Positions 22,547 to 45,363 of a stretch of 64,000 bases of DNA are shown piece after piece. The notes below the pieces were generated by a model. That model made no database searches. It was given only the letters and a program-made list of their open reading frames with translations, and was not told where the DNA came from. Position numbers and translations under genes: made by a program. The stretch spans positions 29,336 to 93,335 of IMG/VR virus record IMGVR_UViG_3300033068_000943; one strand, written 5' to 3'. Source of the stretch: a virus (taxonomy: Duplodnaviria > Caudoviricetes). Position 1 is the first letter of the stretch. Each line of letters begins with the position of its first letter.

Positions 22547-23425
22547 TCACCCCGGCCAGACGACCGCGCCCGCCGTATGATAGAGGCTCTTAGCCGATCC
22601 GTCCGTTGTCTCGATGCGGCTGAATGGCCCTATCGCGGCGCTCGGCAAGGCGCCTGAATAGCTGCCGAGCTGGAACGCTTTGTTGTGGATGTGCTCGCCT
22701 GCGTACCATCGCGCGCCGCCGGACACGATCGCCACTATCAGGAATTTGCGCAGTGTACCGCTGCGATATGGCAATGCCGTCGTCGGATCGATCAGGCTGG
22801 TGTACGACGCGACTCCATTGACCCGCACAACTCCCCACCATTGACCTTCGGTATCCGAGTCGACACGCTGCATGACAACGGCGTTGGCTCCCGAGGCATC
22901 CCGCAGCCCGACCTCGATAACTTGTTTTGTGGTGGCGCTGGGCGCCGTCCACAGTCCGATTTTATACTGCGAGACCGGGACCATCCGCATCAGGGGCGCA
23001 TCGACGCGCGCCGACGCACCCGGCGCCCCCGCCGCTGTCAGCCGCAGACGCGCCATGTAGGTCGGTGACGGCTCAACGACGGCCGTAGACCCGGTTCCGA
23101 CCGTATCGGTTGCGAGGCTTGGCGGCATCCCGCCGACAAACGACATCTCATGGTGCCGGATCGTGACGTGGCGGAACGACGTCACCTCGATGGGAACGTC
23201 CGGGCGATCCGCAGGCCCAAAAAACAGCGTTTTATCCGTTGTGAATGCCGCGATGTTCTCGCTTTTTTCGGAGTTCGGGTCGGCGGGCCGCGATAGCCGC
23301 CCCAGCAGAGCCCCCAGCTTGCCCAAAGAATACACCGTGTCGCCGAGCTGGACATACAGGATGCCACCCGACGTGACGTCGGCATCATCCGACGCGCGGT
23401 TAACAGGGCTTGTCATTATCACCAA
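22547..23425 (-). CDS. Hypothetical beta-rich protein (possible lectin or fibre-like)
   Basis: 292-aa ORF; start uncertain. Confidence 0.45.
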   Translation of the reverse strand: MVIMTSPVNRASDDADVTSGGILYVQLGDTVYSLGKLGALLGRLSRPADPNSEKSENIAAFTTDKTLFFGPADRPDVPIEVTSFRHVTIRHHEMSFVGGMPPSLATDTVGTGSTAVVEPSPTYMARLRLTAAGAPGASARVDAPLMRMVPVSQYKIGLWTAPSATTKQVIEVGLRDASGANAVVMQRVDSDTEGQWWGVVRVNGVASYTSLIDPTTALPYRSGTLRKFLIVAIVSGGARWYAGEHIHNKAFQLGSYSGALPSAAIGPFSRIETTDGSAKSLYHTAGAVVWPG

Positions 23426-23980: not shown

Positions 23981-24054
23981 TGGCACCGGGAGCGGGAGTC
24001 GAACCCGCGCTTGCGGTTTTGGAGACCGCCGTGCTTCCGTAACACTTCCCCGAT
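23981..24054 (-). tRNA. tRNA-Trp(CCA)
   Basis: GCGGT-CTCCAAA-ACCGC, TTCGA loop, G73-CCA; atypical A8/U14 and U11:A24. Confidence 0.9.
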
Positions 24055-24320: not shown

Positions 24321-24788
24321 TCACCCGTTTGCCGGGCGCACCGATTCAATCGCCCCTGCGTCCCAAACACACCCCGAAGCGCAGTCCCACGACGAATACC
24401 ATGGAAGCTCGAATCGAACACTGGTTTGATATGGGACGATGACGATGCCTTGGTACTCGCGCGCAACACGGCCCCAATCTATGGCGTGAAGCGGCATCGA
24501 TTTTCGCCACGGCGCGGCGTAGCGGTCGCTGAATTCGCGAAGCCCGGGCACAGACGCGATCGATAGAATGCGCGCAGCCGGGTTCAAAACGATTTGCGTC
24601 GCGCAGGCAAGCCGGTCCAGCCGGAATTCGTTGTCGCGACACCATTCCGCCCAGCCCATCGGCCCTTCGACAGACACCCACAATCCGTTCGGCTTGAACC
24701 CAAGGCGAGCGCGGCCAGCACGGTGGCCGAATTGGCTCGCATCACGCACAGCGGTCAACGGGGTATCGGAATAATGAACCAAAAGCAT
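24321..24788 (-). CDS. Conserved phage hypothetical protein
   Basis: KPNGLWVS..W.EWC..IDW..V...YQGI..WY..WDCASGCVW motifs. Confidence 0.65.
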   Translation of the reverse strand: MLLVHYSDTPLTAVRDASQFGHRAGRARLGFKPNGLWVSVEGPMGWAEWCRDNEFRLDRLACATQIVLNPAARILSIASVPGLREFSDRYAAPWRKSMPLHAIDWGRVAREYQGIVIVPYQTSVRFELPWYSSWDCASGCVWDAGAIESVRPANG

Positions 24789-25094
24789 GGTCTTACCCCG
24801 CCTCGCCAACTCTCTCGACATGGAGAGCATGCGCGATGCATTGCGCATGCGTTCGGCGCGATCCATGCCAGCGCCCCCGAATATAAATATCAAACAACAG
24901 CACGGTCCCGTCCACGCAAGACACGGGCCGCAACTCTACGTCGACAGCCGTCTGGGCTTGACCACCGATCGTGATATTCGCGTCCATGCCCATCCCCTTC
25001 GTGCACAATGCCGAGCGAACCGCCGGCCACCCCAGCCAATCATGAAGCGAAGGATAGGCGCCGCCGTGCCGGTTTAGCGTAGAATGAATGATTC

Positions 25095-25361
25095 TTACTC
25101 ATGCGGCGCCCGACGCCCCGAGCGTCGCGCGTATTTGATCCGCTCAAGCGCCACGATAAAAAGCGTAAAGTTGCTTTCAAGCGTCGCAAGCGACCCATGC
25201 GCGGTTCCCATCCATATTGCCTCATCTGCCGACGCAGCATGCCTTGGCCGGAAGCTGCGCGCGATCTTCGCGCTACGCATCACAGCATCCCTGGCCTCGT
25301 GAAGGCTTGCCAGCATCGCCTCAACCTCATCGTCAGAGACACGTCCATCCGCATCAGGCAT
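25095..25361 (-). CDS. Hypothetical protein
   Basis: Overlaps the release-factor stop codon. Confidence 0.5.
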   Translation of the reverse strand: MPDADGRVSDDEVEAMLASLHEARDAVMRSAKIARSFRPRHAASADEAIWMGTAHGSLATLESNFTLFIVALERIKYARRSGRRAPHE

Positions 25362-26034
25362 ACAAGTCCTCCAGATTCCCGGCCAGCACGTCGGCGAGCC
25401 GCGCCTTGGCGCCAGTCTTGTGGTCGGTCACGATCTCGTCTCGCACCCGGTACGTGCGGGTCTTATCGCCGCGCATGCCTGAGCCCACCTGCCCCTTGCG
25501 ATCCGATGCCGTGGCGAGGGCCGTCTGCTGCGCAACATGCGCCGCCACGCGGCCCTCAAGCGTCTCTCGCGCGATCTGGCGGTTGCGATGCTGCGACTTC
25601 GTGGCCGCCTTGGCCTCGATCCCTGTTGGCTTGTGTCGCATCACCACACACGATTCGGTCTTGTTTCGATGCTGGCCACCCGGCCCGCTGTCCATTGTCG
25701 TTCGCACCTCGATGTCTGCATCCCGCAGCCGGTACGCCGATCGCTCGCGCAACGCGAACACCGCGACAGTGACGGTCGATGTGTGCACGCGCCCGGAGCG
25801 TTCCGTTGGGGGCACCCGTTGCCAGCGATGGCCGCCGCTCTCATTCAGCAGGCGCTTGGCGGCAAGATCATCCCCCTCGATGATCAGGACCAGTCAACTG
25901 CGGCCTTCGTCCTCGACATCGACGACCAATCCGTGTCGACGCGCATAGGCAAGATAGATAGCCGCCTGATCTCGAACCAAGAGCTTGGCGTCGTCGCCGC
26001 CCTCGCCGGGCCGGATTTCAATTGCGATTTTCAT
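25354..26034 (-). CDS. Class-I peptide chain release factor homolog (RF1-type PxT, lacks domain 1) with in-frame UGA at codon 47
   Basis: MKIAIEIRPGEGGDDAKLL..S*LVLIIEG..ESGGHRWQRVPPTERSGRVHTS..GPGGQHRNKT..SQHRN; TGA at 25896-25894 in the same frame. Confidence 0.9.
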
Positions 26035-26222
26035 CGAACAGTCCTTTCCATGCGGGCCAGCTCGCGCATCACGGCATCCCGGACGACATCGGATTTGCTT
26101 ACGAACTCGGGACGCGCGAGTGACGCCCTGAGTGCCCGGATACGCTCAATGGCACGAGCGAACTCGTCGTCCGACCGCATCATGAACGTCTTTGTGAGAA
26201 GCTTAGGTTTTGTGTTTGCCAT
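26031..26222 (-). CDS. Ribbon-helix-helix DNA-binding protein
   Basis: KTFMMRSDDEFARAIERI..SKSDVVRDAV; ATGA-coupled to the release factor. Confidence 0.65.
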   Translation of the reverse strand: MANTKPKLLTKTFMMRSDDEFARAIERIRALRASLARPEFVSKSDVVRDAVMRELARMERTVR

Positions 26223-26319
26223 GGCCACAGCTATGTACTCCACGTCATGACGTCTTGCAAGGGGCGCGAAGCCTTTTCCGCACTCCCGACTTTGCGGTGA
26301 ATTATTTCTTCATGGCGTA

Positions 26320-26377: not shown

Positions 26378-26719
26378 GTGACCAAGGAAATCAAGAGCAT
26401 GCGCGGAAGCTGGAAGGTGATCGACAGCGGCACCATCCAATTCGACATCCGCGACGAGAAGGGGCGCCGCGTCGGCTATTGGTGGCAGATCGCCGAGCTG
26501 GAAATGCTGCCCTACGACAAGAGCAAGGCCAACTACGGCGGATACTATCAAGAGCCCGGCATCTACATCGAGGTTAGCGCCCAGGCGACCCGCAACGATG
26601 AGCCCTACGGCGCATCGAACAGAGCGAAGGAGTTCAAGACGATCGCGGAAGCCAAAGCCGAGATCGAGCGGCAGGCCGCAGCCTGCGAGAAGCGGTACGC
26701 CAAGAAGTACGGGACATAA
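26378..26719 (+). CDS. Early hypothetical protein
   Basis: AGGAGG SD; first gene after the promoter. Confidence 0.7.
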   Translation: MTKEIKSMRGSWKVIDSGTIQFDIRDEKGRRVGYWWQIAELEMLPYDKSKANYGGYYQEPGIYIEVSAQATRNDEPYGASNRAKEFKTIAEAKAEIERQAAACEKRYAKKYGT

Positions 26720-28524: not shown

Positions 28525-29958
28525 TAAGGAGCCGACGACCGAACAAAGGACCAGCACATGGCACGCACCCGCGCAACTATCACAGCCGGCAACAAGACGA
28601 TGCGGGCGACCACTGTTTTGGCCATGATGCGGGCAGCAGCGTTCCGCCGTGGTTTCGAGGATGTGAAGCGCGGCAGGCCGTTTGCGCTCGACGCCTTCGA
28701 TATCGACAACCATTGGCAGTACGAGCGCGGGCGCCAGTTTGCCTGCATTTTCGACGGTCAACTCAAGGTCGGCCGGAGGGTGACGCGCGCGGCGCATGAA
28801 GCATATTGCGCCGCTCGCAAGGCCAAAATCATCCTTTGACGGCGTTGCACTACATTCGGCTGCCCGCGTGATCGACAGGAGAACCCGATGACCTTCGCCG
28901 CATGGCTTGATACGTTTGTTGCCGAGAAAGGAATCGACACGGAAGCGCTGCTTGAAGTCGAAGGCGCGTCCGGACTCAACATCATCCCGGTCTGCGTGGT
29001 GCTTTCCGCGATGAAGGCGGCCTCGGCGCGCGAGCAGGGCGCCATCAAGGCGATGATCGTCCGCATCGATTTCGCCAACCGCCCCGTGCTTCCCTACTTC
29101 AAACATCTGGCGCAAGCCATCGCGATCTGAGGAATGCATCATGCCCGTCTGGATTGAAGTCACGGTGCAGCGATGAACCAAAAAGCGGCGTGGAAGGCCA
29201 TGAGCCTGGAGAGCGCGGGCGCACAAGCCCGCGCCGAGGCCGATGCTGGCGGGCTGATCCGCGTCATCGAAGGTGAGACACCCCATTCGGGAGACGCCAC
29301 CATCATCTGGAGCAATCACCCCGGCGACATGCGGGATCGCATCAAGGCCCTCGAATCCGCCCTGATCGCGATCAACGAGGTCGCGACGGATGCCGGGAAC
29401 GACGCGCGCCACACCAAGCCCGAACGGTTTGCGTTCCGCGCCATCGGCGCGACAATCCGGCGCGAGATGAAAAAGGTCGGGCTGTAGATCGTGCCCGAGC
29501 GCCCACGCAACAGAACCCCTGAGGCTACCCATGACCGACCGCACTTGGATTGCCCGCGCCATCCCCTGCTATGCCCACGAGCTTGCCGACACGATTGACG
29601 CTCGCCGCAGCCTTGTCGCCAAGCTGGAGCGCGTCGTTATCGAGGAAGAGCGCCGGAACGACACCGGCCACTGGGCTTACGATCACGCTCGCCACAACGC
29701 CTTGCGCCGCGCCCTTCACGATGAGCGCGCGGCACTGGAGCGCATTATAGACGAGATGCATCATTGACGATTCGGTAACTAACGGATGCTTCACGTATCT
29801 GATGTTCATTCGGCCGGCGACCCTCGTCGAGACCATCGTCGAGGAAACCCTGATCGACAGCGCGCTGGACGATTTTCCCGCTGTTCCGCCAAGGCGAGCT
29901 GGGCAGAACCATCCTCGACACCCTCAGACGCCTCGGAGGGTCCGCCAGCGCCCCGGAG

Positions 29959-44082: not shown

Positions 44083-45363
44083 TTAGAAGCTGATCTTGGT
44101 GCCCAGCATGAACAGCGTCGTATCGCTGCACACACCCAGACACAGCGGCGTCGGCGTGCCGACATCGAGGCGTCGAACCGTCCCGTAAACGTCGAGCGCC
44201 AGCCCGTCGATGGACTGAATTGCGCCAGCCCCGATCACCTTGAGATCGTCGCCGGTCAACTGCTCCATCTTCTGCCACTCAGCGAACAGCGTCGTGGCGC
44301 CCCAGCCCGTCCAATTGCGCTGAATGCCGGCCTGACCACCGTATCCGGTCACACGTTCGGAACCGAGCGACGCAGACACCGACCCGCCGATCAGCGGCAC
44401 GTTGAGCGAGATCACCCCGGTCAGGTCGTAATCGAGACGCGAATAGAACCCCGTCGCGAACAGCCCCGTCTTGGTGTGCATCAGCGATGCCGATCCCGAC
44501 AACGCCTTGTGCGATCCCGTGACATCCAGCGTCAGGATGTTGAGCACGTTCAGCACGTTCGCGAGCGTCTGCGGCTTCTGGTCCCGGTAGCCGATGCCGG
44601 CCGCGAACCGGAATTCGCCGAACTCGGCCGCATAGCGCAGCGCGGCATCCCACGTGTCCGTGTCCGACCACGTGACGGACGCCGTAAACCCGCCAAGGAT
44701 CGGCGTGTCATAGCGCACGACATTGGCCCGGCCGCCGTCATAGGGCAGATTGAGGAACGGCACGGCTCCGCCGAAGTTCAGCGGCATCAGACTCAGAGGC
44801 CGCACGGCGAGATTGGTGTTGGCCGTGCTCAGCTCGATGATGCCATCCGTCGCCATCGACGTGTGACCGACAGACACCGTGCCCAGCACCGTGTCGAGAT
44901 AGACGTAGCTGTGCCGGGTCGTGGTCCCGACCTCGCCGAAAGCCACCTCGTTCTTGCCATCGGGCGAATCGGGGATGGCGATGACCGCATTGCCGGCATC
45001 GATGCCCCGAGCGCTCGGGTTGGCGATGGCAATCTCGATCACGAAACCGGCCCGAGTGTCCTTGCCGATCCGACCTTCGCCCGCGAAGCGGAAGCGCGAC
45101 GGGTCTTGCGTGCCGTCGTAGATCGACAGCTTGTTGGCGCCCGGCAGGTCGTCGTTATCGTGCGACAGAATGCCCTTGTGCACGACGCCGGAGATCGTGA
45201 GCGAAACCTTGCGGTTGCCCTTGCGGGCCACGGTCGCCTCCAACTCAGCAACACGCTCCTCCAGATCTGCGCAGCAGTTGCCGCCTAGATCGGCGGCGCT
45301 GACCAGCGCCGCCGACAGCAGAAGCGCAGCCGTGGCGCCCCCCATAATCCTCATCTGTGTCAT
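44083..45363 (-). CDS. Outer-membrane porin (Hyphomicrobium-type)
   Basis: Signal peptide, ADLGGNCCADLEERVAELEAT.ARKGNRKVSL, VRYDTP, beta-strands, terminal Phe. Confidence 0.85.
   Translation of the reverse strand: MTQMRIMGGATAALLLSAALVSAADLGGNCCADLEERVAELEATVARKGNRKVSLTISGVVHKGILSHDNDDLPGANKLSIYDGTQDPSRFRFAGEGRIGKDTRAGFVIEIAIANPSARGIDAGNAVIAIPDSPDGKNEVAFGEVGTTTRHSYVYLDTVLGTVSVGHTSMATDGIIELSTANTNLAVRPLSLMPLNFGGAVPFLNLPYDGGRANVVRYDTPILGGFTASVTWSDTDTWDAALRYAAEFGEFRFAAGIGYRDQKPQTLANVLNVLNILTLDVTGSHKALSGSASLMHTKTGLFATGFYSRLDYDLTGVISLNVPLIGGSVSASLGSERVTGYGGQAGIQRNWTGWGATTLFAEWQKMEQLTGDDLKVIGAGAIQSIDGLALDVYGTVRRLDVGTPTPLCLGVCSDTTLFMLGTKISF

Follow-up and report, generated by a model that had tools for sequence, protein, structure and literature searches.

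Why would a phage release factor (RF) gene carry a stop codon inside its own reading frame, and how might its full product then be made? The question is raised by a gene at 26034..25354 on the minus strand of a 64,000-nucleotide stretch of tailed-phage DNA (Duplodnaviria; Caudoviricetes), which covers positions 29,336 to 93,335 of the IMG/VR record IMGVR_UViG_3300033068_000943 and is called the window throughout. The gene opens with 46 sense codons, within which IEIRPGEGGDDA falls; codon 47 is TGA (the gate), and the same frame then runs on through the remainder of a bacterial-type release factor. Comparison with related genes indicates that this in-frame stop is programmed and kept, with conservation far beyond chance. 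Our preferred reading, to which we give a probability of about 0.6, is that the gene specifies a compact RF1-type factor gated by a programmed UGA47, the yield of which would rise as termination at UGA (by RF2) weakens. The parts of the gene and its upstream neighbour are as follows.

26048..26042, minus strand: Shine-Dalgarno (SD)-like GAAAGGA with a 7-nt spacer to the ATG, read from the sequence
26034..26032, minus strand: start codon ATG of the RF gene, read from the sequence
26034..25897, minus strand: first part of the RF open reading frame (ORF), codons 1-46, in which RF domain 2 begins; it contains the helix-alpha-5 tip motif EIRPGEGGDDA
25896..25894, minus strand: the gate, an in-frame TGA at codon 47, with C next at 25893
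25893..25357, minus strand: second part of the RF ORF, codons 48-226 (179 codons), with the rest of domain 2, domain 3 and domain 4
25812..25804, minus strand: PPT motif (domain 2) in the translated frame downstream of the gate
25680..25672, minus strand: GGQ motif (domain 3) in the translated frame downstream of the gate
25356..25354, minus strand: terminal stop TGA of the RF gene, with T as the next base, overlapping the beginning of the following ORF (ATG at 25361)
26243..26031, minus strand: upstream 70-aa ORF, whose own TGA (26033..26031) shares ATGA with the RF start codon

Re-reading and translation of the sequence upheld what a preliminary description had reported of this anatomy, namely the start signals (the ATG at 26034, GAAAGGA and the ATGA coupling) and the 46 codons that are followed by UGA-C and then by the same frame through PPT and GGQ. 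At the gate the window reads AGT TGA C, and frame 0 continues with no CUU ahead of the stop. The same description had called the upstream 70-aa ORF a ribbon-helix-helix protein, an assignment left without support by zero matches in Pfam and PHROG; the two databases give this ORF no similarity to release factors either.

The read-through product, 226 residues long, matches Pfam PCRF (profile positions 101-194) and RF-1. Its NCBIfam scores are 195 bits for RF1, 108 for RF2, 64 for PrfH and 31 for ArfB, all under the cut-offs; the RF1 match spans only model positions 106-334 of 347, and the RF1 equivalog models give 194.8 bits against a cut-off of 400 (NF001859) and 185 against 423.25 (TIGR00019). 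Domain 1, a three-helix bundle, is missing, the ORF beginning 5 codons ahead of the EIR-x-GEGG motif. The RF1 codon-reading elements are all kept (EIRPGEGG at the alpha-5 tip, WQR, PPT and HTS), as is the catalytic GGQ, and alignment to solved RF1 chains extends over the whole of domains 2, 3 and 4. The alpha-5 tip is family-specific, with GEGG where the aligned Thermotoga maritima RF1 has GTGG. An AlphaFold (AF2) model built on a 20-sequence alignment (predicted local distance difference test, pLDDT, 88.6) agrees with ribosome-bound RF1 of Thermus thermophilus and Escherichia coli at a template modelling (TM) score of 0.87, against 0.55 for closed crystal forms of RF1 and 0.62 for PrfH. An RF1-type factor lacking domain 1, as first proposed for this locus, is borne out by the Pfam and NCBIfam positions and the RF1 motifs. 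Motifs and model together indicate that the gene encodes a compact class-I RF1-type factor made up of domains 2-4 only, with predicted release activity. Its predicted specificity, from the Q of WQR, PPT and HTS, is UAA/UAG. By the tripeptide rule of Ito et al. 2000, PPT is said to predict UAA/UAG only.

Retention and exchange of the gate in the family

The gate is retained in nearly all genes of a large family. Related stretches numbered 476 in viral contigs, more than 534 in species-representative genomes and more than 547 in metagenome contigs, and the 259 best loci were classified; loci outside the classes named here could not be typed. Exactly one in-frame stop interrupts 133 of the 259 (131 TGA, 2 TAG), and a further 94 need a +1 shift, every one of them at CTT-stop (70 TGA, 23 TAG, 1 TAA). 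UGA accounts for 88% of the gates and UAG for nearly all the remainder, UAA standing at 1 of 227. Homologs with a sense codon at this place, a case that the preliminary description had named as one that would refute its proposal, are confined to about 14 open genes among the 259, of which half encode ordinary full-length factors that have domain 1. The homolog alignment that it had called for finds the stop kept in the 133 in-frame and the 94 +1 genes and, in the window's clade, purifying selection on both sides of the gate. The short genes all start a few codons ahead of the EIR motif, and loss of domain 1 is therefore a family trait.

The two classes of gate differ in their surroundings. Frameshift sites mirror the cassette of bacterial prfB: all 94 have CUU, 75 have an SD-like GGAGG or GGGAG 3 nt upstream, and in 72 the stop is followed by C. 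The in-frame gates have an SD-like element in 4 of 133 and a Gly codon before the stop in 120 of 133, and GGY-UGA-[A/C/G] is the sole pattern common to them; the base after the stop is A in 89, C in 22, G in 22 and U in none (n=133). In the window the gate reads TGA-C against TGA-T at the gene's own terminal stop, and T follows 23 of the 72 ordinary TGA stops of this phage, although TGA-C is also its commonest normal stop context (26 of 72), a caveat on calling the gate context weak. In the in-frame-gated genes with a complete end, the terminal stop is TAA in 117 of 131, so that gate and end stops usually differ; the window gene, with TGA at both, is in the minority state.

Could the stop be an accident, or be sidestepped by a second start? 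A broken gene, a sequencing error, or a product made from the internal GTG at 25815, which opens a 153-aa ORF within the RF gene and would lack the N-terminal part, is in our view very improbable. The GTG ORF is present, and the TGA base is covered by a single sequencing run, probably the one from which the assembly was made, other runs covering only short conserved pieces. However, the stop recurs in 133 diverged genes with saturated synonymous sites, the 46 codons ahead of it are constrained as much as those behind, no start codon after the stop was found in any family member inspected, and the N-terminal part has the alpha-5 element, which in RF1 reads the first base of the stop codon. Given the recurrent stop and the two-sided constraint, a dead gene is excluded, as are a sequencing error and a nonsense mutation of recent date.

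The family tree (163 rows) falls into three clades. In a clade of 68 genes, an in-frame TGA lies about 30 codons past the EIR motif (site 1), at the position where canonical RF1 has its conserved Trp (KGW in T. maritima RF1); the readthrough genes of site 1 have ordinary TGG at their other 1-4 Trp codons and TGA at the gate only. In 64 genes that form a second clade, the +1 cassette occupies site 1, and UGA and UAG have been interchanged there several times. The third and smallest clade holds the window, and its gate, an in-frame stop or a +1 cassette, lies about 10 codons beyond site 1 (site 2). PPT dominates the PxT motif in every gate class, and switching between UGA and UAG goes without a PxT change.

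Within the window's clade, the gate stays in place while its type varies. The most similar sequence to the window, L113 (67-68% identity; such handles denote individual loci), is a frameshift form; L006, L113, L115, L116 and L118 carry a prfB-type +1 site at the window's gate codon, and L005 has TAG there. These real CUU-UGA-C cassettes at the same codon in sister genes uphold the kinship in logic with prfB that had been suggested for the locus. In codon alignments, readthrough and frameshift forms have TGA-C at one place and differ by small indels, the gate stop falling in one alignment column for 8 of the 10 clade members and within 2 columns for the remaining 2. Synonymous sites are saturated between clade members (pS 0.6-0.9), non-synonymous differences (pN) stay at 0.17-0.41 both before and after the stop, and pN/pS is about 0.44 before the gate and about 0.40 after it. 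The clade's tree is a near-polytomy, of which the best version needs 5 gate-form changes and 0 of 200 bootstrap trees need just one; grouping all readthrough forms costs 27.8 log-likelihood units and is weakly rejected (approximately unbiased test, p-AU 0.034), with the caveat that well-supported branches force only one gate-form change and that the tested group was named after tree inspection. The alignments indicate that readthrough and +1 frameshift forms alternate at one codon within this clade. On our reading the family uses three interchangeable gates: an in-frame stop at site 2, an in-frame UGA at site 1, and a prfB-like +1 cassette at either.

A few loci depart from these types. The metagenome loci include one +1 cassette with a TAA gate and one locus, L249, that needs a -1 shift; both may be transitional forms or assembly errors. 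In L024:3001-3400, which is amber-gated (CTT TAG C), the +1 frame stops after about 69 codons, short of GGQ, and the gene is truncated or interrupted by an insertion.

Probable decoding of the gate

In the window the coding sequence resumes in frame 0, and none of the family members has a start codon beyond the stop, so readthrough would be the simplest way past the gate. Termination at UGA47 by host RF2 would yield a useless 46-residue peptide, and decoding of UGA47 by a near-cognate tRNA would yield the full 226-residue factor. The decoder would most likely be tRNA-Trp, either the host's or the one encoded by the phage's own U11:A24 gene, and Trp would be inserted. The less efficient termination at UGA becomes, the more factor would be made, competition with RF2 setting the yield. 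Bypass by readthrough, insertion of Trp, competition with RF2 and a regulatory value of the whole arrangement are what we infer for the window gene.

Genome-wide recoding does not account for the gate. The window belongs to a 93-kb record, estimated to be 92% complete, with a G+C content of 57-65%. A scan for in-frame stops based on G+C at third codon positions gave antisense frames equal scores, and ORF tiling was used instead: under the standard code (table 11), ORFs of at least 60 aa tile 90.7% of the 93-kb genome, and they end in TGA in 72 cases, TAG in 21 and TAA in 21 (n=114), i.e., 63% TGA. The phage has 7 tRNAs, none with a suppressor anticodon, and only one RF gene. UGA is a normal stop elsewhere in this genome, as the preliminary description had said, and recoding of TGA throughout is rejected by the ORF coverage together with the lack of a suppressor tRNA. 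A Trp reading of every TGA in the phage (code 4) has a parallel in the RF1 genes known from TGA-recoded phages (Borges et al., bioRxiv 10.1101/2021.08.26.457843), but the 72 of 114 ORFs that end in TGA include both the ORF overlapping the RF start codon and the RF gene itself, and each gene has one TGA at a fixed site; the probability of this explanation is close to negligible.

A hairpin just beyond the gate had been put forward as the driver of readthrough.

25885..25866, minus strand: 7-bp hairpin GATCATC/GATGATC, beginning 8 nt past the gate TGA

The hairpin itself is there, perfect over 7 bp and 8 nt past the UGA, but the role ascribed to it did not withstand comparison. The 40 nt after the gate fold at -10.8 kcal/mol, equal to the mean of other 40-nt windows of the same gene (rank p 0.46); the 60 nt after the gate give a folding z of -0.36 in the window, and downstream folding over seven homologs has a combined p of 0.34. 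RNAalifold found no conserved pairs near the gate stop in 10 site-2 and 16 site-1 genes, and no covariation. We reject the hairpin as a readthrough stimulator on its ordinary stability and its lack of conservation across homologs; it is probably a by-product of Ile-Ile ... Asp-Asp codons, since its arms encode Ile-Ile and Asp-Asp and the codons ATC and GAT are reverse complements.

The same evidence bears on selenocysteine (Sec), which had been considered for residue 47, with the hairpin acting as a selenocysteine insertion sequence (SECIS). A UGA with a 7-bp hairpin 8 nt later is what such a gene would offer. However, the hairpin is unconserved and no conserved SECIS-like fold was found, L005 has TAG at this codon, and sister genes frameshift there. 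Moreover, residue 47 lies, in the AF2 model, in a loop joining strands 37-41 and 48-53, away from PxT and GGQ and with no catalytic role, and the phage has neither Sec machinery nor tRNA-Sec. Sec insertion at UGA47 is extremely improbable, and this part of the preliminary description was abandoned.

A tRNA-Trp gene of the phage is a candidate decoder of the gate UGA.

23981..24054, minus strand: phage tRNA-Trp (CCA) with U11:A24 in the D stem, 1.3 kb downstream of the RF gene on the same strand

In the site-1 clade, the UGA takes the place of the Trp codon of RF1. The U11:A24 pair of the phage tRNA-Trp is the configuration of the Hirsh suppressor. Among the tRNA-Trp genes found in short flanks, 6 of 7 beside readthrough-type genes (the window included) have U11:A24, as do 0 of 5 beside frameshift-type genes, a correlation over n=12 genes in which 5 of the 6 positives come from one clade and are not phylogenetically independent. 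We treat the association as a lead. The window tRNA-Trp also has A8 and U14, a swap of the near-universal U8:A14, and two G-U pairs in the acceptor stem.

What the gate may respond to

The best reading of the gate is that it senses host RF2. The preliminary description went further, with a factor made exclusively upon failure of RF2 that would counter a shutdown of host translation; both of these points go beyond what the sequences show. Sensing is favoured over plain attenuation because sister lineages use the prfB cassette, which responds to release-factor level in bacteria. A plain attenuator, in which a programmed stop would fix a low yield of a factor harmful in excess and nothing would be sensed, is unlikely, although it deserves real weight. 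It would agree with the lack of a conserved stimulatory structure after the stop, with the GGY-UGA-[A/C/G] pattern as all that the in-frame gates have in common, and with the lowered fitness caused by excess release factors in Bacillus subtilis (PMC12421855). In contrast, the full prfB cassette held by sister genes, with its SD-like element in 75 of 94, is efficient and release-factor-responsive in E. coli, and a weak promoter or weak SD sequence would be a cheaper means of attenuation. The near absence of UAA (1 of 227 gates) also suggests that the gate needs a stop at which termination can be out-competed.

The choice of gate codons bears in addition on self-regulation, in which the phage factor itself would read UGA through a broadened or omnipotent specificity and limit its own synthesis by prfB-like negative feedback, giving one compact self-limiting factor for all stops. 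The gates are UGA in 88% and nearly all others UAG, with UAA almost never used; the prfB gate is nearly always cognate to the encoded factor and was never TAG in 8,164 genomes (PMC12421855). The gates of this family swap UGA and UAG without a PxT change, the phage has a single RF gene although 63% of its genes end in TGA, and the alpha-5 tip GEGG is peculiar to the family (GTGG in T. maritima RF1). However, all known RF1 reading elements are kept (the Q of xQR, P-x-T and HTS), the NCBIfam scores favour RF1 over RF2 (195 vs 108 bits), and PPT, by the tripeptide rule, predicts UAA/UAG only, which makes self-regulation decidedly unlikely.

A "termination rheostat" is also conceivable, if quite unlikely: the compact factor would work without domain 1, and so without RF3, and may read UGA too, which would turn the gate into a true feedback loop, and the phage tRNA-Trp with its Hirsh-type A24 would be the dedicated activator of the gate in the readthrough lineages. 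If this were true, the factor would not be made until the phage had expressed its own tRNA array, and readthrough and +1 frameshifting would be functionally equivalent at one codon, in a natural example.

Several points weigh against the sensing of RF2 through readthrough at UGA47, which nevertheless remains our preferred reading. RNAalifold and folding found no conserved stimulatory RNA structure 3' of the gate, and readthrough may be very low. The tRNA-Trp correlation is small and drawn largely from one clade, as given above. U11:A24 is the native state in some bacteria too. With predicted reading of UAA/UAG, extra factor would not make good a lack of RF2 at UGA, and the benefit of the coupling goes unexplained. 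Lastly, the switching of gates between UGA and UAG without a PxT change in the frameshift clade means that RF2 sensing cannot on its own account for the family.

Genomic setting and related systems

tRNA genes are the sole recurrent genomic context of the family, being found in the 1-3 kb flanks of 78 of 259 loci, often at least 10 at a time. This tRNA-array context fits a role in keeping translation running late in infection, a role that we infer for the gated factor. L116 (NZ_AQWL01000017.1, Thiobacillus denitrificans DSM 12475) is a 41-kb contig of a cultured strain with the frameshift form inside a 26-tRNA array within 6.7 kb; the contig may be a prophage or a co-purified phage, and a possible experimental system. 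In an array beside a frameshift-type RF gene on a contig of a Rhodocyclaceae metagenome-assembled genome, ARAGORN reports a tRNA (L118:666-747) whose anticodon has four bases (caaa) in an 8-nt loop; it could be a mis-folded tRNA or a quadruplet reader. A frameshift-gated short RF occurs, without tRNA arrays, in many Myxococcota genomes (L120, L126, L130, L179 and others; Nannocystis, Archangium, Minicystis, Pyxidicoccus). These Myxococcota copies have no conserved partner, their neighbours varying (an AHH nuclease and Imm11 in one case, a sigma factor, unknowns), and they are either prophage remnants or cellular genes.

The immediate neighbours of the window gene do not recur beside related RF genes: this holds for the upstream 70-aa ORF, the downstream 88-aa, 66-aa and 190-aa ORFs, the 292-aa ORF (22547..23425) and the plus-strand 113-aa ORF (26378..26719). 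The neighbour ORFs tested have no Pfam or PHROG function, with the exception of one unnamed PHROG match, that of the 190-aa ORF (24321-24893, minus strand), which lies between the RF gene and the tRNA cluster and matches PHROG 8582 (unknown function, E 5e-30) and is a phage-specific protein. Further off, a 426-aa ORF (44083-45363, minus strand) matches Porin_4 (E 1e-17), an unusual cargo for a phage and a hint of a Gram-negative host. No close relative of the window phage was found among 50,697 phage records, and PHROGs has no family for the short RF form. Gp34 of Pseudomonas phage Iggy, annotated as prfA, was considered as a member and rejected, being a 356-aa ORF of full-length size; the Iggy relative PBPA162 has no similar gene.

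The nearest known system is bacterial prfB (RF2), which is likewise a class-I RF gene with an early stop whose bypass competes with termination. Unlike in prfB, bypass in the window would be in frame, and the gate has neither CUU nor an SD-like element at the prfB spacing; it interrupts domain 2, whereas the prfB site is at codons 25-26 in domain 1. The window factor is moreover of RF1 type, its UGA gate being non-cognate by predicted specificity, and the family uses TAG as well. A 2025 survey never found TAG in 8,164 prfB motifs, and prfA has no known programmed frameshift (PMC12421855).

A viral precedent exists in the RF gene of Mimivirus (R726) and Megavirus (mg280), which has both a UGA-C readthrough stop and a frameshift stop (Jeudy et al. 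2012, PMC3521657). Mimivirus has a viral tRNA-Trp with a Hirsh-type D-arm adenine and a strong context at the genuine stop, and readthrough was demonstrated in E. coli (PMC3521657). The window gene resembles this case as a viral RF gene with a UGA-C gate, TGA-T at its end and a tRNA-Trp with a Hirsh-type adenine encoded by the same virus. The Mimivirus factor is of the eukaryotic/archaeal eRF1 class, in an amoeba virus, and both events occur in one gene; in contrast, the window encodes a bacterial RF1-type factor that lacks domain 1, its virus is a tailed phage, and each gene has a single event, the alternatives being found in sister lineages. In plants, eRF1 is reported to be autoregulated by readthrough together with nonsense-mediated decay (PMC5397192). 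The likeness is an RF level tied to readthrough at a stop in its own mRNA; there, however, a normal stop and mRNA decay are at work, whereas here an internal stop splits the coding sequence.

Other release factors of phages, and other short GGQ proteins, differ from the window gene in other ways. RF1 and RF2 genes are found among tRNA and translation genes in recoded phages (Borges et al., bioRxiv 10.1101/2021.08.26.457843) and huge phages (Al-Shayeb et al. 2020, PMC7162821). Unlike the window gene, these have no internal stop or frameshift described for them and are linked to code change, whereas the window phage uses the standard code. PrfH (RF-H) and ArfB are also short GGQ proteins, and PrfH too lacks domain 1, but the window protein keeps a complete RF1 codon-reading domain 2; its scores of 63.6 for PrfH (TIGR03072; cut-off 166.65) and 30.8 for ArfB (cut-off 100) are both below threshold.

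Our literature search turned up no report of such gating for a bacterial-type release factor in phages. Bacterial systems seldom use programmed readthrough, and to our knowledge prfB is the only bacterial-type RF gene with a gate made from its own kind of signal. The genes compared here are mostly phage-borne and make up a large RF1-type family. Almost all members are gated, and the gates include an amber prfB-type cassette as well as an in-frame UGA. Gene callers split or miss such genes, and the family is under-annotated as a result. For the recoding field, it provides a natural comparative series of gate designs. The family also points to a minimal release factor that would work without domain 1, its activity being predicted, and for phage biology it offers a candidate route by which a viral translation factor may be tied to the termination state of the host.

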